Shown here: piece by piece, positions 171-61,131 of the stretch
How positions within the stretch are numbered: the first letter of the stretch is position 1
How the letters are laid out: each line of letters begins with the position of its first letter
Assembly: GCA_965287045.1 (NCBI GenBank)
Contig: OZ336891.1
Span: 23,250,001-23,314,000, forward strand
DNA from: Carcharhinus amblyrhynchos
Lineage: Eukaryota
Length of the DNA stretch: 64,000 bases
Reading direction: 5' to 3'
The notes under the pieces: model-generated
Told to the model about the DNA's origin: nothing
Databases searched by the model: none
What the model saw: the letters and a program-made list of their open reading frames with translations, nothing else
Made by a program: the position numbers and the translations under genes

Positions 171-324
171 CGATGTGGAGATGCTGACGTTGGATTGGGG
201 TAAGCAGAGTAAGAAGTCTCACAACACCAGGTTAAAGTCCAACAAAGCACTCTGAAAGCTTGTGGCTTGTGCTACCAAATAAACCTGTTGGACTTTAACC
301 TGGTGTCGTGAGACATCTTACTGT
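171..324. mobile_element. Short Penelope-derived inverted-repeat element with target-site duplication
   Basis: Inverted arms gtaagaagtctcacaacaccaggttaaagtccaaca / tgttggactttaacctggtgtcgtgagacatcttac. Flanked by direct repeat gctaggaaata (160-170 and 325-335). Same family as 51781 and 60704. Confidence 0.85.
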
Positions 325-1802
325 GCTAGGAAATATTACAGAGACTTGCATTATGCAGTGCCAATGGGACAGCAAATGATCTGTTTAGTGAGGGAGGGAC
401 TGCTAATGGACAGCATGCAAGGCAGTGAGAATGTAAGCTTTGATTGAACGCTTTCTCAGAAAGCCTCTAATGTGTGCTTGTGCCTTGGTCCATCAAGAAT
501 CAGATGTAGCTGTTCCTCCTCAGATAGAGAATCTTGTCACATCCCTGATGTAGGAGTTTATCACAGTGTGAGAGATGTCATTGCTGTCGCATTCTACAGC
601 CTCAATCAATCCTATCACATGGAAATTCAGGATTACAGTAACCTTGACAGTTACAGGTAGCGCTGTCCTTGGTCTGATTTGCAATTGCAGTTCCAGTTCT
701 TATTGGTGCTAGCATGCACTTTGAGATGACCCTCCAGTGCCATAAGCCTGCTTTTTGTCCCCAGTGGGATGGTCCCTGGGCTCTAATTGACTGAAGCTCT
801 GAAAATGGCCATGGTGTGTCAGGACCTGGAACTGCCTGTCCCCAAACAACGAATAAAATTTTAGCCCCAAGGAAATTGCAATTTCAAAGATATTGAAGTA
901 AGTTCAATATTCCTGCAAAGCACAATTTACCCAACTGAGCACTCATTGCATTATTATAATTTTACAAGTCAAAGCTGTTACGGAGACCATTTTCTGCTGG
1001 CAGATGTTTAATCTTGCTGTAATTGTGAGTAAATTCAATTATTTACAATAAGGAAAAAGAGAGGTCACTGCATCTTTAAGAAATGCAAAGTTTTTTTTTA
1101 ATTAAGTGGGCCTGTTAAATTTAAATTGAGCTTGCAAAGATGGTACATCTTTTACTGTCATTATAAGTCTGCTTTTACCAGCTGGGATTCACATTAAAAA
1201 TGCAGACAGTGCACTGTTCTAAATGTTTCCAGTCTGGCGAGAGGTACTCAGTGTAAATTGAGAATGCCAGACTGACTTAATTCATCTTGAACTGTAAATC
1301 TTGTGTTCCTTGCCTGCATTAATGGGTCAGAAGGAGGTTATTGTCTGAATCTTGCAGGGTGCTTTCAGTTACAAAGGCAGCGGTGGGCAACATTATCTAA
1401 AAATAGCAATTTCTAATCAACAAATGCCACAAATTTAAGTGGCCAATTCAGCTTGAATGCAAAGCTCTGGATGTATTAAACTAAAGCAAGCTATTGGGGC
1501 AGAAATTGAAACCTGTACTAGACAGTCGTGAATTATAATTTCTGCTTTTGAATGGGTTAGCATCAACACAGATTACATGTTTATGATGATGGTAGCTAAC
1601 TCTCTTCCAGCTCAGTGCCAGTACAAGGAAAAGTCAGCTTCACATAGTAAGCGTTCTGTCCGACATAAACCCTGTGACAAATTCCTGTCAGTCAAATCCA
1701 ACTTCATGTATGACAATTTGAGATAATAGCATCAAACACTGTTTTCTACAGAGCTGCTGGCAAGGCATCAAAGCAGACAAATACGAGATTGCAATTTTTT
1801 TA

Positions 1803-6121: not shown

Positions 6122-6238
6122 CCTGGTTCCAAGTAAAGGGCTGCAAGTTATGACTTTTTCAAAAAACAAAACATTCAGCATTTCCAATCAATGAAGGAGT
6201 GAATGGGAGAGAACAAAATGACTGAACGCAGTGTAAAA

Positions 6239-12106: not shown

Positions 12107-12403
12107 GGATGGTATGGTGGCACAGTGGTTAGCATTGCCACCTCATAGTGCCAGGGACCCGAGTTTGATTCCTGGCTTGGGTCACTGTCCATGTGGAGTT
12201 TGCATGTTCTCCCCGTATCTGCGTGGGTTTCCTCCGGGTGCTCCGGTTTCTTCCCACAGTTCGAAAGACATGCATTGGCCATGCTAAATTCTCCCCCAGT
12301 GCACCCGAACAATGCTTGAGTGTGGCGACTAAGGGATTTTCAAAGTAACTTCATTACAGTGTTAACATGAGCCTACTTGTGGCACTAATAAATAAACTTT
12401 AAA
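12107..12403 (+). mobile_element. HE1-like SINE, tail B
   Basis: HE1 head and core, then ggattttcaaagtaacttcattacagtgttaac...cctacttgtggcactaataaataaacttt. Confidence 0.92.
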
Positions 12404-15132: not shown

Positions 15133-15431
15133 GTGGTACAGTGTCACAGTAGTTGGCACTGCTGTCTCACAATGGGTTCAATTCCGGCCTCGGGTGATTG
15201 TCTGTGTAGAGTTTGCATAATCTCCCCATGTCTGTGTGGGTTTCCTCCAGGTGGTCTTGTTTCCTCCCACACTCCAAAGATGTGCAGGTTAGTTGGATGC
15301 TACATTATCCCTTGGTCTCAGTGGCATGACAGGTTAAAATGTTGGGTTACAGCGATTGGGTAGAATTGTTGTCAGTGCAGACTTGATGGGCCAAATGGCC
15401 TCATTCAGCACTGCAGGTATTGTATGATTCA
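15133..15431 (+). mobile_element. HE1-like SINE, tail A
   Basis: Head, core and gtgcagacttgatgggccaaatggcc tail. Confidence 0.85.
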
Positions 15432-25020: not shown

Positions 25021-27551
25021 TTCAAATGCTCCTCTGGCTCCATTAAAATATTTCCAATTGGGCATCCAGGGTGGGACATCTAGTGGGAGCGGGGGTTAAG
25101 CCATGTATCAGAAGTTTGTTCCGCTCATTAATTTAAAGACCCCTTTACCACTCATTGTCACCTTAATTGTTATGTCCACTGATAAAAACTGAACAAATAA
25201 AAGTCTACAAGCAGTCAAATACTGCTACCTTCAGCAGAAGACTCTACTGCTTACATGCAATGATGGTCCCATTTGCAGATGTTTTCATCTGTCCTTGAGC
25301 ACTCTCCTCATACCTAGAGTAACTCATTCCCAGTGTATTTCCTGTATGGCTTGGAGTAGACAAAGAAAAGTTGCACTAGATTGGCTTTTTCACATGTTCA
25401 ATAGCTTGCTAGTTATTTTTTACAAAACGGCGATCTGATTTCAGCACCCAGCTGCTTTCAGTATTATTGGAGGCTGGCAGGATGCCATTCCAACATCACA
25501 CCATATTTTACATAAGTGTGGACTGGGAAGTGGGGTGATACTACCTACCCCATTTGTGGCCATAAAATCTAGCCCCAGTTACTTCATACTAGTAGTTCAC
25601 ATATAATAGCTCTATATAAATAATCATTTCATTCCATGCAATTATATGCTTAAGTGCATTAAATGTCACTACAAGCGTAAGCACAATATCTTTCTCACCT
25701 CTGGCACATCAGCATTTTTAACCCAAAACCAAGCTCAAAAAACAAACCTGCCATTTGCTTGACACTAATTCAAGCTAAATTGGAAGTTTCATTCAGAAAG
25801 GCCACACTGATGTCAATTATATGAATCCGAGTTGTCTTAATGACGCAGATTGAAGCTAAACCACGTTAGAGCAATATTACAAGAAAAGAAAAATCAGACG
25901 GCTAGTTATTCTATAGATAACTACCTGATGTGATTAACACTTCATGGAAAGCATGACACGGTTGTTCCATTACCTGACCTAATCCTCCTCCTTTTGTACA
26001 GCATAAAATTCACCTCGCCTCTTATCTCTTTTTTCCTGCAAAGTCTTGATTAACTTTGTGCAAATAGTGTAAGCAAAATCAAAACATTTACCTCACCCTA
26101 GATTCAAATAAAATTAGTCAACATGTTTTTTTAAAAAATCTATGTTTAACAATAATACCGCATAATAGGGGAATGAGGGAGGGGTGGGTTTTAACTTCCA
26201 CCACACCTTTCACAATCTCACGTTGAAATCAACATTCATACAATTTAACAGACTAACTGACTTCCTAAACAGTCACAATTTCAGTTCACAATCAAATCAA
26301 ATGACAGCTGTTGTGGATTATTAAACAAACTGACTGTGAATGAAAAGATTTGGTGTAAAGAATGAAAAAGACAAGGTGAAAGGGCAGTGTGTATCAGAGA
26401 AGCCATTTCCTTTACACTCTAGTGGTCATCGCGCTGTATATTTCTTGAATTTGTCATCCATATGAATAATGAGCGGAATTGATTCACTCCAAGGTTGCAA
26501 GATGGAGCAAAGCACTTACAGCAAACAAAAAATGCAAGAATTTACAAGATCTGTTGAAATGCATCCGAGAAATTGTTCGTCAGCACTACTGAAGAGTGTG
26601 CAGCTCCTTCTATGTTGTTGTGTGCAGGTCTGTTCTTAATAACATTAATTGCAAAACTTTCGAGGGCACCCTCTGCTGAAATGGGTATCATGTTGTTTTC
26701 TGTTGCCTTTCAATGGCTATTAATAGAGCACTGCAAAGAAAGCAATCTCACATAAACTGTCATTTGGACTTTTAGAGCTGAACTCAGGTTCAAGGGGAAT
26801 AATACCCATCTAAGTCCTTGTCTGGGAGTGTAATATAAACCCAACTCTTAAAATATCAAGGCTGCCAACTAATAGTCAGACATCTAGCAGCAGTATCAGA
26901 TTCCTATCATGCAATTGATTTTGTCCACCTCTTTTTACAGGGCTTCATTAAAATGAATATGAAGATCTATTCTTGTACAGCATGTCGCTGTTTGAAACTT
27001 GTCCATTTTATCAGTGGCTTGAGTGTTAAATAAACATTCTGCTACACCTTGGCCTATAAGAGTCTCTTCGCTGATATAAATGCATGTTGAAACAGAAGCA
27101 TGATGCTTATCTAGACAACTAAAATTTAACCAGTTTATTGCGTGTTAGTTGTTGAGGGGATATTTTGGGAATAAATAAACTGAGGTGGATACTTCCACAG
27201 GAAAAATGTTCAAGCTTTCATTTTCTGACATGGTAAGTCTATTAATCTTATGAGGCTGAAAGCTTAGTAGGGAAGAAAATCAATAATTTGAAGTAAAGAC
27301 AGATTGATGAATAACGGTTTCACTTTTGTCTTCTGCATCAACATACAAACTAATTCATTCTCAAAGTCCTTTTTTGACAATCTCAGAAAAATGGATGCAT
27401 TTCACACCAGCAATTCCTTCAGGGTGTGATTCAAAATCACCAAAGCATTTGATTTCATTGGTTTAATTTTGAACACTTCACCATGTTAGAATATTTGAGT
27501 TTTCTTTAATGAATTTGCACAGAAAGATTCCCAATAATTGTAATGCAATTT

Positions 27552-27870
27552 GGCACGGCAGCACAGTGGCTAGAACTGCTGCCTCACAGCACCAAGGACC
27601 CAGATTCGATTCCAGCCAACAGTCACTGTCTGTGTGGAGTTTGCACGTTCTCCTCATGTCTGCGTGGGTTTCCTCTGGGTGCTTCGGTTTCCTCCCACAG
27701 TCCAAAGAATGTAAGTTTGGTGAATTGGCTGTGGTAAATTGTCCCTTTAGTGTCAAGGGGACTAGCAGGATAAATATTTGGGGTTACAGGGATAGAACCT
27801 GGGTGGGATTATTGTCAGTGCAAGCTCAACAGACTGAACAGCCTCCTGCACTGTAGGAATTCTATTCTAT
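27552..27870 (+). mobile_element. HE1-like SINE, tail A
   Basis: Full head, core and tail ending gcactgtaggaattctattctat. Confidence 0.92.
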
Positions 27871-34118: not shown

Positions 34119-37100
34119 ACCTCCTCCGGCAGCACCACCTTCTGTGTGAAAAACTTATCCCTTACATCTCTTTTAAACTTTTCCCCTCTCACTCTCAATC
34201 CATGTCCCTGAGTAATTGACCCTTCGACCCTGGAAATAAGACTCAAACTCTCCACTCTATCCAAGCCTGTCATAATCTTGTGAGCCTCTATTAAGTCCCT
34301 CCCTCATCCTCCGACACTCCAGTGAACACAATCCAAGTTTATTCAACTTTTCGTCATAGTCCATGTCCTCCAAACCAGGCAACATCCAGGCAATCTCTTC
34401 TGCATCCCCTCCAATGCATCAATATCTTTCTGGTAGTGTGGTGATTAGAATTGTACACAATGCTCCAAATACGGCCTAATCGAAGTCTTATACAGCTGCA
34501 ACATGGTTTTCCAATTTTTATATTCAATTTCCCAACCTATGAAGGCCAACATGCCATATGCCTTCTTGACCACCTGAGGTGCCATCTTCAGAGAACTGTG
34601 GATCTGCACACCTATATCCCCCTGTAAGCTAATGTTTCTAAGGACTCTACCATTAACTCAATACTTTCCTTCCGCAGTAGACCTTCCAAATCACATCACC
34701 TCACATTTGTCCAAGTTAAATTCCATCTAGCATCTTTCAGCCCGGGTCTCCAGCCAGTTTATGCCCTGCTATATCATCTGACAATCCTCCTCACTATCCG
34801 CTACTTCCCCAATTTTTGTATCATCTGCAAATTTACTAATCAGACTACCTACATTTTCCTCCAAATCATTTATATATGTTACAAACAACAGAGGCCCCAG
34901 CACTGATTCTTGTGGAACACTGCTTGTCACAGACCTCCAGTTAAAAAAGTACCCTTCCACTGCTACTCTCTGCTTTCTATGCCCAAGCCAGTTTTGCATC
35001 CACCTTACCAGCTCACCTCAGATCCCATATGACTTCACCTTCTGGATCAGCCTGCTGTGAGCAACCTTACCGAAGGCTTTAGCAAAGTCCATGTATGCAA
35101 CATCCACCGCCCTGGTCAATTTTTCTTGTCATTTCCTCAAAGAACTCAATCAAGTTTGTGAGACACAACCTCCCCTTCACAAAACCATGCTGCCTATTGT
35201 TAATAAGCTTGCTCTCTACCAGTTGTGAGTGCACCCTGTCCCAAAGAATCTTCTCCAATAATTTCCTCACCACTGATGTAAGGCTCACTGGCCTGTATGT
35301 TGCAGGATTGTCTCTCGTGCCATTCTTAAACAGAGGAACAATGTTAGCTGCTCTCCAATCCTCTGGTAACCCACCCATGACTAAAGGGAATACAAAGATT
35401 TTGGCCAAGGCCTCAGCAATTTCTTCCCTTACCTCTCTCAGTATTCTGGGATAGACCTTATCTGGTCCTGAGGACTTGCCCACCTTAATGTTTTTCAAGA
35501 GCTTCAATTCATCCTTCCTTATTACCTCAGTATGTCCTAGAATGTCAACATCCTCCTTTCTAAACTCACCACCCACCACATCCTTCTCCATTGTGAATAC
35601 TGATGCAAAGTACGCATTAAGCATCTCACCCACCTCACCTGGCTCTACACACAATTCCCTCCACTGTCTGAGAGTGGACCTACTCTTTCCTTAGCTACCC
35701 TCCTTATCCTTATTTATGCTTAAAAAAGCCCTGGGATTTTTCTTAATCCTGCCTGCTAAGAACATCACATGCCCCTTTTTGCCCTCCTAAGTCCCTGTTT
35801 AAGCTCTTTCATTCTCCCTTGGTATTCCTCAAGATCCTTATCCGTTTTCAATTTTCTGAAAGTCGTGTGCCTTCTTCTTCTTTTTCACTAAGCTTACAAT
35901 CTCTCTTGTCATCCAGGGTTCCTGAATCTTGCCATCTTTATTCTTCATTTTTACAGGAACATACTTGTCCTGAATTGTTAACAACTGACTTTAAAAGACT
36001 GATGTGGATTTACCATCAAACAGCCACCCCCAGTTTACATTCCCTAACTCCTGCCTGATATTGTCATAGTTAACTTTCCCCCAGTTTAGTACTTTCACTC
36101 TGGGATTACTTCTATCCTTTTCTACAAATATCTTGAAACTTATAGAATTATGATCACTGTTCCCAAAATGGACTCCCACTAAGACATCAATCACCTGTCT
36201 GGGCTCGTTTCCCAGAACTAGGTCAAAGATAGCCCCTTCCCTAATTAGACTATCTACACATTGCCTCAAGAAGCACTGTTAGACACACTGACAAAACTCT
36301 GCCTTGTCCATGCTCCTGGCACTAAAGGAATCCCTGTCTATGTTGGGGAAGTTAAAATTGCCCACCACAACAACCTCATTGTTTTAAAATCTTCCCATAA
36401 TCTGCTGATATATCAGTTCTTCCACTTCACGCTGACTGTTGAGAGGTACAACCCAACAGTGTGACTGCACCTCTCCTATTCCTGAGTTCCATCCATATGG
36501 CCTTACTGCAGGATCCCACCAATGTTCCCACCCTCTGTTTAACTATGAAACTCTCCCTAATCTGTAAAGCAACACACCGGCCTGTTTTGTCACCCTCTCT
36601 ATCTTGCTTGAAGCATCTGAATCTTGGAATGCTAAGCTGCCAGTACAGCCCTTGTTTTATCCAAGTCTCCATATTTGCCACAACATCATAGTTCCATGTA
36701 GTAATCCAAGTTTTAAGTTTATCTGCTTTCCCTGTTTTATTACCTTGCATTAAAGCAAACACACCTCAGACCATCTGTCCTGTCATGTTTTGTACACTCT
36801 TCCTTATTTTATTTCTCTTAGCCTTATTGGACCCATTCAGTGAGTTCTCCATAGTCTCTGTCCTATGGCCCTTTTTGATTTTTGTCTTTGGTTCCACTGC
36901 CTTCCACTTTTCCCTTTACTGCCTTTTGTTTCTGTCTCCACTTTATTTCTCTCTGACTTCCTGCATTGGTTCCCATCCCCCTGTCATATTAGGTTAAAAC
37001 CTCCCCAGTGACACTAGCAATCACTCCTCCGAGGACATTGGTTCTAGTCCTGCCCAGGTGTGGGCCATCTGATTTGTGATGGTCTCACCTCCCCCAGAAC

Positions 37101-42428: not shown

Positions 42429-42733
42429 GCAGGCACGATGGCACAGTGGTTAGCACTGCTGCCTCACAGAGCCAGGGACCCAGATTCAATTACCGGCCTG
42501 GGTCACTGGCTATGCAGAGCCTGCATGTTTTTCTTGAGTCTGCATGGGTTTCCTTCCACAGTCCAAAGGTGTGCTGGTTAAGTGCATTGGCCATACTAAA
42601 TTGCCTCTTCATGTCATGGGGATTAGGAGGTTAAATACATATGGTTACGGGGATAGGGCCTGGGTAGGATTGTTGTTGGTGCAGACTCGAAGGGCAGAAT
42701 GGTCTCCTTCTATTGGAATTTTATGATTCTATG
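42429..42733 (+). mobile_element. HE1-like SINE, tail A (inside the LINE)
   Basis: Head, core and tail ending atgattctatga. Confidence 0.9.
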
Positions 42734-46569: not shown

Positions 46570-47451
46570 AAATGTTTTACAGAAACTGATCCTGGCAGAA
46601 GTCGTTTCCATTCTCACAGAGACAAATAACATTTTAAAGAGATCAATTTCCGGGTGATCAGAAAGAACTGAAGGGCAAGAATTCATGTTTTTAAGACTTT
46701 TACTGTGAGAAACAAACTACAATCAGCATAAACCAAACATTACTTAACAGGTAATTAATATATCAAACTAAAGAAGATACTTCCACATTTATTTAACACA
46801 GTCAAAATGTGCATTACAACCCCTTTCACTGTGTGCTATTCTCCTTATTTCTTCAGAAGGAACTCTTCAAAATGCAGCTAATGGAAATACAATAAAACTT
46901 ACCCCAACTTATAAATCAGCAAAAGTGTTTAATAAAGAATCATTATTACTCCAAACTTGAGGCCTCGCCCTGGGCCACTCCAAGCTCTCCACAATTCTAC
47001 ATAATTCCTTATTTATAGTGATTCAGCTGGTCAGCTATTACATCACTCTGTAATTGGTTCCATGGTTTACTGTGTCAGCTGACCCTTACATCTTGTTCCC
47101 ATTGGTCACATTATATCCAACACAAAGTTGTTACTGGTTACAATCTAACATGTAACATTACATGCCCATGCCCAAGATAATTCCCAGCTCTCCAGCAAGC
47201 AAAGTTCTCCCTTCAAAGATGGCCTTCAGAAATCATTCCATTCAGCCCAAGTTTTCCAGATCCAATCTTCACCAGCAAGGCCCATCTCACTGAGTGCTGT
47301 TCCTTAAATTTCAAAAAAAACCCCTTTGATTCTGTTCCCTTCATTTCAAACAGAAAATAAAGCCTCATTAAACATCGTGCTTGGTTGTTAACACAAAATA
47401 CTCCTTTTCTGCTTCTCAAAGCAGCAGCTGCTTTCTCTCTCTCTCTCTTTT

Positions 47452-47482
<31 letters not shown>

Positions 47483-47729
47483 CTCTATCAGTATATTCTT
47501 TGTCTCTCTGTATATCTCAAAATACAACTGTCCCTTTTCTGTCAGATATTGTGTAAAGGTGTCAAAACTGTCACTTGCTACTTCAATTGGTTTCTGTTCT
47601 CTCTCCATGGCAACCAGATCACAGGGGCATGTCTCTGAGCAGAGGTGCTCACAAAACTCTCAATTTTCCTTTCGGTTAAAGAGGACATTTTAAAATATAA
47701 CTGTGCTGTAAAGTCCTGCATTCATAACA
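46570..47729 (-). mobile_element. Probable solo LTR containing a (CT)n tract
   Basis: Minus strand begins TGTTATGAA and carries tataaa and aataaa motifs. No TSD confirmed; the left boundary is uncertain. Confidence 0.4.
47433..47486. repeat. Imperfect (CT)n microsatellite
   Basis: Directly visible. Confidence 0.9.
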
Positions 47730-51780: not shown

Positions 51781-51948
51781 GAAGAAGTCTCACAACACCA
51801 GGTTAAAGTTCAATAGGTTTATTTGGTAGCATGAGCTTTCGGAGCGCTGCTCCTTCACTCACCTGATGAACCTATTGGACTTTAACCTGGTGTTGTGATA
51901 CGTTTTACTGTGCCAAATCTAGTCCAATGCCGACATCTCCACACCATG
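51781..51948. mobile_element. Penelope-derived inverted-repeat element with two partial hammerhead motifs
   Basis: Inverted arms. Minus strand TGA-A-GGAGC-AGC-GCTCC-GAAA-GC-TC; plus strand cacCTGATGAa. Confidence 0.85.
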
Positions 51949-55309: not shown

Positions 55310-56091
55310 GATTTTGATTTGTTTTGATTTGATTTATTGTTGTCACATTGGCACAGTAGTACAATGGTTAGCACTGCTGCTTCACAGCTCCAGAAGCCTG
55401 GGTTCTATTTCCAGCTTGGAGCACTGTCTGTGTGGAGTTTGCACATTCTCCTTGCGTCTGCGTGGGTTTCCTCCGGGTGCTCCGGTTTCCTCCCACAGTC
55501 CAAAGATGTGCAAATTTGCTTGATTGGCCATGCTAAAATTGCCCCTTAGTGTTCTGAGATGTGTAAGTTAGAGGGATTAGTGGGTAAATATGTAAGGATA
55601 TGGGGTAGAGAACGGGTGGGATTGTAGTTGGTGCAGAATGGCCAAATGGCCTCTCTCTGCATTGTAGGGTTTCTATGATTCTATGTATTAGTATACAGTG
55701 AAAAATATTGTTTCTTGTACGCTATACATACAAAGCATACTATTCATAGAGAAGGAAGGGAGAGAGTGGAGAATGTAGTGTTACAGTCATAGCTAGGGTG
55801 TAGAGAAAAATCAACTTATTGCCAGATAAGTCCATTCAAGAGTTTGATGGCAGCAGGGAAGAAAGATGTTCTTGAGTCAGTTGTTACGTGACCTGAGACT
55901 TTTGTATCTTTTCCCCGACGGAAGAAGGTGGAAGAGAGAATGTACGGGGTCCATGGGGTCCTTGATTATGCTAGCTACTTTGCCGAGGCAGCGGGAAGTG
56001 TAGGCAGAACAAATGGATGGGGAGCTGGTTTCCATGATGAATTGGGCTTATGTTCACGACCTTTTGTAGTTTCTTGTGGTCTTGGGCAGAT
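55310..56091 (-). mobile_element. Rex1/Babar-type LINE 3' fragment, interrupted by an HE1-like SINE
   Basis: Same sequence as 22343-22790; split inside its terminal tgtcacat|gtattag region. Confidence 0.88.
55349..55685 (+). mobile_element. HE1-like SINE, tail A
   Basis: Full head, core and tail ending ttctatgattctatg. Confidence 0.92.
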
Positions 56092-59206: not shown

Positions 59207-59514
59207 GTTTAAAGTTTATTTATTTATTAATGTCACAAATAGGCTTACATTAACACTGCAATGAAATTACTATGAAAATCCCCTAGTCGCCACACTCTGG
59301 CATCTTTTCGGGTACACTGAGGGAGACTTTAGCATAGCCAATGCATCTAACTAGCTCATCTTTCGGACTGTGGGAGGAAACCAGAGCACCCGGATGAAAC
59401 CCACGTAAACACGGGGAGAATGTGCAGACTCCGCACAGACGGTGACCCACGCTGGGAATTGAATACTGGGTCACTACTGGAGGCAGCGGTGCTAACCACT
59501 GTGCCACAGTGCTG
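59207..59514 (-). mobile_element. HE1-like SINE, tail B
   Basis: Reverse-strand head, core and tail B. Confidence 0.9.
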
Positions 59515-59589
59515 CTCTTGTACGTCAAAGCTTTGTAAATTGCTGCCCCTCCAGCTTGTCCATTCGGAGGTGATTTTCGCACTGACTTC

Positions 59590-60245
59590 TGCATGTGATT
59601 CCTTCAAAGAACTCCAAAAATTGATTAAACATGATTTCTTTTTCACAAAATCATGTTGACTCTGCCTGATTGCCTTGAATTTTTCCAAGTGCCCTGCCAT
59701 AACATCTTTAATAATGACATCAAACATTCGTCCTAAGACAGATATTAAATTAACTGGCCTGTAGTTTCCTTCTTTCTGTCTCCCTCCCTTTTTGAATAAA
59801 GGAGTTATATTTGCTATCTTCCAATCTAATAGAACCTTTCCCAGATCTAAAAAAATTAAAGTTAAAGTTTATTAGTCACAAGTAAGGCTAACATTAACAC
59901 TGCAATGAAATTACTGTGAAATTCCCCTAGTTGCCACAGTCCAGCGCCTATTCAGTCAATCCACTGAACCAGCACATCTTTGGAAAATTAAAACTAATGT
60001 ATCAACTAGTTTATTAGTCACTTCTTTCAAGAACTTAAGATGAAGTCCATTTAGACCCAAGGATTTGTGGATCCGCAACTCCAACACTGCCACTTGTCTG
60101 GTGATTGTAATTTTCCTGAGTTCTTCCCTCCCTTCTATTTCTAGGTATACAGCTATTTCTGGGATATAACTGGTGTAATCCATAGTGAAGACCATTGCAA
60201 AATACCTATTTATCTGCCATAACTTTACTTTCCATTATCAATTCC
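59590..60245 (-). mobile_element. Degraded CR1 ORF2 fragment containing a tail-B SINE fragment (~59855-59982)
   Basis: HKSLGLNGLHLKFLKEV...LVLIFQ; IRQSQHDFVKKKSCLINF. Confidence 0.85.
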
Positions 60246-60703: not shown

Positions 60704-61131
60704 CATGACATGAAGATGCTGGCACTGGACTGGGGTGGGCACAAGTAAGAATCTCACAATATTTGGTGAGATCTTGGGTTCATATCACACTATGTCTAAC
60801 CCTCACTATTTAGCCTGGACTTGCAAAATCCTACTAACTGTCCCGGCTTGAGACAATTCACACCTCTTTAACCTGTGATTATCTCTCTCTCCACTCTCAC
60901 TGTGTGCACCTGTAAAGACTTGATTACCTGTAAAGACTTGCATTCCAATCATTATCTTGCAACTGTGTCTCTGTCTATAAATACCCTGTTTGTGAACCCA
61001 CCTCTCCATTCACCTGATGAAGGAGCAGCATTCCAAAAGCTCGTGATTCCAAATAAACCTGTTGGACTTTAACCTGCATTATGAGACTTCTTACTATGCT
61101 CACCCCAGTCCAATGCCGGCATCGCCACATC
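60704..61131 (+). mobile_element. Penelope-like element 3' end: inverted terminal arm, ORF C-terminus and pseudo-LTR with hammerhead motif
   Basis: 60770-60799 encodes DLGFISHYV*, like the end of vertebrate Penelope GIY-YIG ORFs. Terminal arms are inverted (60704-60759 versus 61085-61131). Confidence 0.85.
61010..61046 (+). ncRNA. Degenerate minimal type I hammerhead ribozyme motif
   Basis: TCAC-CTGATGA-A-GGAGC-AGC-ATTCC-AAAA-GC-TC-GTGA. Stem I is TCAC/GTGA; GAAA has mutated to AAAA. Confidence 0.7.

Follow-up and report, generated by a model that had tools for sequence, protein, structure and literature searches.

A damaged minimal hammerhead in a decayed, probably Neptune-type Penelope-like element of the shark Carcharhinus amblyrhynchos

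Positions 60770–61131 of the window, a 64-kb stretch of the 2.92-Gb Carcharhinus amblyrhynchos genome (C22:23,250,001–23,314,000), are a 5'-truncated copy of a Penelope-like element (PLE), joined by a short inverted arm at 60704–60760. It is highly probable that the locus is the decayed remnant of a shark Neptune-type PLE whose pseudo-LTR (pLTR) carries a hammerhead. In the source elements this was likely a self-cleaving RNA maintained by selection; the copy described here has likely lost activity. The copy itself matters little, being a likely dead example of a published motif and one of an estimated 10^5 or so in this genome.

Anatomy of the element copies and their full-length relatives

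The main arm is truncated at 60770, within the end of the RT/GIY-YIG ORF. The last nine codons (DLGFISHYV) and the stop are retained (60770–60799, plus strand), matching the sibling ORF end "...DLGFMSHYL*". The remainder is the 3' pLTR (60800–61131, plus strand), delimited with the help of the tandem junction in L212 and 87% identical to the family majority over 363 nt; it stops just short of the ATG with which the ORF begins in tandem copies. The inverted arm (60704–60760, minus strand) comprises the last ~57 nt of the pLTR including the tail, and matches 61078–61123 on the opposite strand at 85%. It lies head-to-head with the main arm, which is the usual PLE layout. No target-site duplication of at least 7 nt was found flanking 60704–61131; a degenerate GA/TG microsatellite lies to the left of the locus.

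Within the pLTR, a TATA-like box (TATAAATA, 60976–60983, plus strand), identified from an 8-mer present in long-copy matches, lies 32 nt before the putative transcription start. The latter is placed at A61008, in an initiator-like CCATTC (61006–61011, plus strand), on the basis of a pile-up of 5' ends and an extra G in short genomic copies (see below). The hammerhead follows (61010–61046, plus strand). Beyond the predicted cut are an AATAAA (61052–61057, plus strand), present in all subfamily groups and a putative poly(A)-type signal, and a predicted stem-loop with GTTGGAC/GTCCAAY arms (61061–61114, plus strand) around the first of two preferred 3' ends. The stem-loop appears in the minimum free energy (MFE) folds of the window copy, L034, L046 and L212 (in context); the folded L049 fragment left out its second arm. 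An optional tail of ~35 nt (61096–61131, plus strand) is defined by the bimodal 3' ends of 90 copies picked on their downstream flank.

The hammerhead reads, in order, TCAC, CTGATGA, A, GGAGC, AGC, ATTCC, AAAA, GC, TC and GTGA, confirming the layout proposed in the initial annotation. Stem I is formed by 61010–61013 and 61043–61046, the CUGAUGA box occupies 61014–61020 with an extra A at 61021, stem II spans 61022–61034, and an AGCU palindrome at 61038–61041 precedes the predicted scissile bond after C61042 (all plus strand). Relative to the family form there are CpG-type changes at 61030 (G>A) and 61035 (G12>A), and a C>T change at 61031 that retains a G-U pair. G12 is absent and stem II is interrupted by a C-A mismatch at 61026/61030. 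G12 is the general base of hammerhead catalysis, and with it and one stem II pair lost this copy is likely inactive, judging from its sequence.

Two further loci in the window are also damaged, as the initial annotation had stated for all three copies. The second copy (51782–51857, minus strand) begins inside the first core box and lacks the tail. On re-reading of 51831–51857 (minus strand), the reported perfect stem II and GAAA were both seen: stem II and GAAAGCTC are kept, CTGA and the 5' strand of stem I are absent, and ATG replaces GTG after the cut site. Its partner arm (51855–51947, plus strand) starts at the hammerhead 5' edge, keeps CTGATGAA and the tail, and lacks the hammerhead body. 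This arm jumps from CTGATGAA straight to the flank, possibly through a template jump across the hairpin. The sole candidate for a target-site duplication at the 51.8-kb locus is a weak 8-mer. The third locus (155–335) is a fold-back of two short arms: an inverted arm with a tail and no hammerhead (172–244, minus strand), and a forward arm of a long-spacer subfamily (247–327, plus strand) that starts inside stem II and keeps GAAAGCTT-GTG. The motif remnant reported at 252–262 is present as CTGAAAGCTTG. A 16-nt direct repeat with two mismatches (at 155 and 320) brackets this locus, and is likely a target-site duplication of about 14–16 bp.

Assignment of the motif to a Penelope pLTR, also made initially, is borne out by relatives of the window copy. 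Positions 60769–61131 align at 85% to L027; this locus and 29 relatives continue upstream into GIY-YIG and RT coding sequence. Sibling copies carry a single ORF with an RT and, at its C-terminus, a GIY-YIG domain. RVT_1 scores above the Pfam cut-off in two of three long ORF pieces from siblings (E=4.9e-10), and GIY-YIG falls just under the curated cut-off in two of the three (E=2.5e-4 and 1.7e-3); two N-terminal ORF pieces gave no relevant Pfam match. The closest named proteins are from sharks (Heptranchias, Scyliorhinus, Mustelus and Chiloscyllium; 79–91% identity). In L212, a C-X4-C-X2-C linker (CHSNLCKTC) and a CCHH motif (CKKGC...EH...EH) fit a Neptune-type assignment at the sequence level, the linker being common to Nematis and others in the available text of PMC8557442.

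A search with the RT region located, on C8, an array of 3,025-bp units that are 97–99% alike and carry one hammerhead each, in direct orientation. Hammerheads recur in tandem three times in L211 and twice in L212, and the array pLTR terminates at CACATC-ATG, the start of the ORF. The family thus displays partial-tandem pLTRs, an inverted 5'-truncated arm and an optional tail, all expected of PLEs, and the near-identical tandem units represent natural dimers. L211 and L212 (G000:C8:124401000–124420999) form two arrays in opposite directions. All of their units carry stops or frameshifts, and the second array is interrupted by a LINE-like element; the high identity of the units may reflect local duplication and not recent transposition. 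Fold-back insertions at L124:2373–2377 and L108:1559–1571, each with two near-identical intact hammerheads back to back, belong to a subfamily with a 6-bp stem I and are likely among the youngest insertions seen.

Conservation and folding of the hammerhead

The 37-nt consensus that had been assembled from the three window copies is a real major form, with 175 exact copies in the genome (84 forward, 91 reverse; reversed-pattern control, 0). As a reconstruction of a single source it is flawed, because the spacers that follow the motif in the three copies (ATTCC, CTACC and GCTTGTGCTACC) sort into different spacer types or length groups, so the consensus mixes subfamilies. Conservation of the CUGANGA/GAAA core, for which a genome-wide check had been proposed, was upheld: a pattern fixing the core and inner stem I and leaving stem II free has 6,173 genome matches (control, 0). 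A 38-nt downstream flank has 14,636 exact matches, which, together with the three loci in 64 kb, suggests a total of ~10^5 loci. At the family level the motif has the CUGANGA ... GAAA core with U16.1-H17. AGCT and the extra A predominate in every subfamily group, and N7 varies between T and C, as the hammerhead consensus permits. All 11 core bases are retained in 35 of 66 copies picked on ORF sequence. Despite the damage to the three window copies, the family as a whole is undamaged.

The proposed covariance-model search found no hammerhead. Rfam 15 matched no hammerhead family (E<=10) to the window, nor to six loci whose copies are intact in the core; Rfam is thus blind to the minimal form, and the motif is supported instead by the family counts. 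Matches to mir-3015 at 217–313 fell far below the gathering score and correspond to inverted arms.

Covariation was assessed from 230 loci, which gave 292 distinct copies anchored on the downstream flank, 266 of them parsed; a set of 243 remained after leaving out 23 picked for exact identity. Stem II pairs 2–4 are paired in 92%, 97% and 85% of these copies, compared with 86%, 86% and 72% after shuffling, and exceed all 2,000 shuffles. Stem II varies by G-C/A-U swaps, and its length ranges from 3 to 6 bp in recurrent haplotypes. Stem I joins the 5' and 3' ends over 4–5 bp, as in type I hammerheads, and reaches 6 bp in the L212 subfamily. Its inner three pairs are 85–95% paired, invariant and without covariation, and pair 4 is formed in 158 of the 243 copies (U-A in 90, C-G in 36, U-G in 32), with a U-C mismatch in 61. 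Compensatory changes between subfamilies were thus found, as the initial annotation had invited one to look for, in stem II pairs 2–4 and the outer stem I pair. Since the shuffle control ignores relatedness, about four independent double changes is a fair count. The covariation supports selection of the fold in the source elements.

Divergence outside CpGs is 0.030 in the core and 0.055 in base-matched flank (P=0.015; 66 ORF-picked copies), and the CpG position G12 has changed in 15 of 64 copies, compared with 58 of 197 flank CpGs. These values fit selection in the source elements followed by neutral decay after insertion. The hammerhead NUH rule is a cleavage-site requirement at position 17. 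At this position 6,173 pattern matches have A, C or U and 141 have G; a hand count of the 100 matches listed gave 37 A, 22 C and 41 T.

The intact form is predicted to adopt stems I and II at -10.0 kcal/mol, with most pairs having a probability of 0.99. In the window copy the hammerhead fold is at -2.3 kcal/mol, and an alternative fold is predicted in context. An active dimer with a 4-bp AGCU/AGCU helix reaches -19.7 kcal/mol; two separate monomers are more stable (-21.4), and a duplex formed through stem II more stable still (-28.7). The active dimer is therefore not the predicted ground state, and predicted cleavage, if any, would be slow or assisted. Cleavage as dimers, which the initial annotation had put forward, is one published mode, with low activity recorded for dimers of PLE minimal hammerheads in the accessible text of PMC4209133, and it is one of two. 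The PAc motif from Anolis was cut only with the element protein and was dispensable for insertion in vitro, and RNA ends at its cut site were sought and not found, as far as the available text of PMC11167929 extends. Eight of nine Xenopus retrozyme dimers were likewise uncut according to the portion available of a preprint (bioRxiv 2026.07.22.740005).

Copy ends and the fate of the element RNA

Ends were analyzed in 90 copies fetched from the first 100 of the 14,636 downstream-flank matches. The 3' ends are bimodal, 38 lying at 42–49 nt and 40 at 77–86 nt from the anchor start; the second cluster, ~35 nt beyond the first, corresponds to the PLE tail. After removal of 10 segmental duplicates, 23 of 80 copies have their 5' end at -10 to -1 from the first core base. 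Neighboring 10-nt bins hold 6 and 9, and the other closed bins between -60 and +29 hold at most 4 each. Starts within 2 nt of the predicted cut number about 3 of 80, no more than background, a count that is noisy because little sequence is left to align there; a cleavage footprint of a few percent is compatible with the 80 copies. In a set of 119 hammerhead-selected copies, 41 start at -10 to -3, 22 at -20 to -11 and 6 at -30 to -21. The -20 to -11 starts are partly chance extension, a control having revealed that 5'-end calls are blurred by several bases.

The TATA-like 8-mer occurs in 139 of 255 long-copy matches. In 125 of them it sits at -37 to -39 relative to the first core base, 32 nt before the initiator-like A at -6; the remaining 116 of the 255 have none by the strict pattern. 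Of 57 short copies, 29 have a G immediately before their first base (expected 16.9; P=0.0006). Where the element has C at -7, G and A could be compared genome-wide as the extra base before a -6 start: among the first 100 of 1,202 matches, a hand count gave 83 G and 17 A. All 30 such matches that were retrieved proved to be short copies, and the sequence upstream of them is either unrelated or inverted. Of these 30, 27 have G as the extra base, including all 12 without an inverted arm. T precedes the extra G in 19 of the 27, so a target or microhomology effect may contribute. The cap is copied as an extra G in other retroelements, and the simplest reading of the sequences is that the extra G arose when uncut RNA was reverse transcribed as far as the cap and across it. 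In the openly available literature no account of strong-stop or cap-derived G was found for PLEs. A precise start site is predicted by the copy ends, which also suggest insertion from uncut, capped RNA.

These data lead to the following proposal. Transcription would start ~6 nt before the core, at the equivalent of A61008, so that the capped RNA would open with ~40 nt taken up by the hammerhead, which would recur at its 3' end. Reverse transcription would begin at one of two sites 50–90 nt downstream of the cut site and would copy mostly uncut RNA, giving short cap-to-tail copies; longer copies such as that in the window would come from the downstream repeat. On balance, we favor the view that the hammerhead occupies these first ~40 nt and that thousands of the short copies are complete run-off cDNAs, reaching from cap to tail, of RNA that had not been cut. 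For cleavage after H17, a second hammerhead, through the 4-bp AGCU/AGCU helix, and/or the element protein would be required. It would be a slow, conditional RNA-processing step that insertion would not need.

It is tempting to speculate further. A GT is found at +36, at the predicted cut, and a CAG 66–73 nt later. By analogy with Drosophila virilis Penelope, in which transcription starts inside the pLTR and a 75-bp intron lies 46 bp past that point (Schostak et al. 2008, PMC2377424, from its available text), it may be guessed that this GT is the donor of a 66–73-nt intron. Such a 5'-UTR intron would hold the AATAAA and the first RT start site. If the scissile bond doubled as a 5' splice site, any one leader could be cut, spliced or copied, each fate excluding the others. 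Stem I and the 3' hairpin offer another explanation for the GT and AG. When the genome was searched for the precisely spliced junction, the one match had no element around it and was attributed to chance, and no spliced joint was found in contigs of four runs presumed to be RNA. The complete reading, which adds to the run-off copies both this splice site at the cut and a ribozyme acting as a conditional self-decapping switch that removes RNA from the template pool, is doubtful.

The proposal has to be weighed against a hammerhead fold kept for a non-catalytic job, as a binding or folding signal for the RT protein at the RNA 5' end, with no cutting in cells. We regard this as unlikely, while acknowledging that it sits well with copies made mostly from uncut RNA (about 3 of 80 starting at most 2 nt from the predicted cut), with an active dimer that is not the predicted ground state, and with hammerhead mutants that had no effect on PAc insertion in vitro in the available text of PMC11167929. 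The core bases are fixed across subfamilies while the stems vary, which argues against a purely structural role. So does the avoidance of G at position 17, where each of A, C and U is common as a subfamily state, as the NUH cleavage rule demands.

A second alternative makes the short copies an independent non-autonomous family, either retrozyme-like circular RNAs or MITE-like, and not by-products of full-length elements. Such a family is improbable, since the window copy retains the ORF end, short copies are spread over several subfamilies that also have long ORF-linked copies, and they end at the two PLE tail positions. They also start at the putative capped 5' end and not at the cut site expected of a circle junction, and 18 of 30 are head-to-head and not in tandem arrays. 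In its favor are the very many short copies with a common start at the motif, and the pLTR-derived non-LTR retrozymes of vertebrates, including one chondrichthyan, in the portion available of bioRxiv 2026.07.22.740005.

That the host has co-opted or retained the window copy as a working ribozyme or regulatory RNA is very improbable: the first core box and stem I are retained and nothing further was found in its support, whereas G12 is lost, stem II is broken by CpG-type changes, the fold is weak (-2.3 kcal/mol) with another fold in context, and the 87% identity to the family majority is typical of the age class. Chance resemblance, to which the short motif and the lack of an Rfam hammerhead match might point, is ruled out by covariation and element context, with a fixed core, covarying stems, adherence to the NUH rule and a position in a PLE pLTR where such motifs are expected, and its probability is negligible.

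Relation to known elements and neighboring sequences

This kind of motif was already published in 2014 for fish, coelacanth, frog and reptile PLEs, and the shark family adds a member. Minimal hammerheads were described in the pLTRs of metazoan PLEs, including fish Xena, Poseidon and Neptune and elements of coelacanth, Xenopus and reptiles (Cervera and De la Peña 2014, PMC4209133). Judged by the available text of that study, the shark motif is of the same form: type I, without a monomeric helix III, with a palindrome at 15.2–16.2 (AGCU in the shark), an extra base between A9 and G10.1 before stem II, a G10.1-C11.1 pair, a stem I of 4–5 bp and a location in the pLTR. The initial claim that PLEs carry such minimal type I hammerheads agrees with this description. 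Many dispersed single copies and covariation between subfamilies are shared too; stem II is 3–6 bp in the shark, compared with 7–8 bp in Schistosoma. The model of PMC4209133, as available, comprises cleavage, circularization and rolling copy, whereas the shark copy ends suggest templates that were uncut and capped. In the searchable supplement of that paper no shark is named, and no shark-specific report of a PLE hammerhead was found in the openly available literature; the 2026 preprint includes one chondrichthyan.

A parallel can be drawn with PAc, a Poseidon element of Anolis carolinensis (Frangieh et al. 2024, PMC11167929, from the accessible text). Both have a hammerhead at the pLTR-ORF junction and two preferred 3' ends ~35 nt apart, which in PAc mark internal RT start sites, and uncut RNA is the main template for PAc, as in our reading of the shark family. 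The PAc ORF opens within its hammerhead, with RT beginning 111–118 nt into the ORF, whereas in the shark ~90 nt separate the hammerhead from the ATG downstream, at which the tail ends, and the linker is of Neptune type. Protein-assisted cleavage has been demonstrated for PAc and may be a mode open to the shark motif.

With EN+ PLEs of the Neptune and Nematis type, the shark elements share a C-terminal GIY-YIG with CCHH, a CX2-5CxxC linker, 5' truncation, partial tandems, an inverted 5'-truncated arm, an optional 30–40-bp tail and a microsatellite beside the insertion (Craig et al. 2021, PMC8557442; Arkhipova et al. 2013, PMC3846280; both as far as available). TATA-like and initiator-like pLTR motifs, found in the shark, have also been proposed for Adineta Pen2a; an extra G at the 5' end of short copies was not found described in the available parts of PMC8557442 and PMC3846280. 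The D. virilis Penelope promoter is TATA-less and its hammerhead follows the intron, in contrast to the TATA-like box of the shark (PMC2377424, available text). Non-LTR retrozymes share with the shark family a type I hammerhead from PLE pLTRs, one being chondrichthyan (bioRxiv 10.64898/2026.07.22.740005, portion available). They are tandem repeats with a hammerhead per unit, whereas the locus at 60704–61131 holds one truncated copy, with a remnant of the ORF and an inverted arm, and has no tandem non-coding units. As the role of PLE hammerheads is described as open in the accessible text of PMC8557442, the shark family is useful as a test bed.

Several other features of the sequence were noted. 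On the minus strand, at 61007–61016, the family sequence complementary to the first core bases and the 5' strand of stem I resembles a 5' splice site closely (the major form has CAG-GTGAGT); judging from sequence, it could affect host introns that hold antisense copies. An open stretch at 47216–47659 (minus strand) has a weak spectrin-repeat match (PF24915, E=7e-4) below the cut-off. It may be a host gene exon, in which case the hammerhead copy would be antisense in or near that gene. Weak RVT_1 matches at 59359–59868 and 35082–35690 (both minus strand) are likely decayed LINEs. An abundant dispersed repeat of ~330 bp with a tRNA-like head, presumably similar to the elasmobranch HE1-type SINE, is present on both strands (1980–2298, 12110–12285, 15140–15428, 27551–27841, 42431–42732, 55349–55679 and more). 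Elsewhere in the genome, identical matches at ~21.6-kb spacing (G000:C20:45406012–45471839) and repeated identical flanks near the start of C1 (0.4–4.9 Mb) point to segmental duplications.
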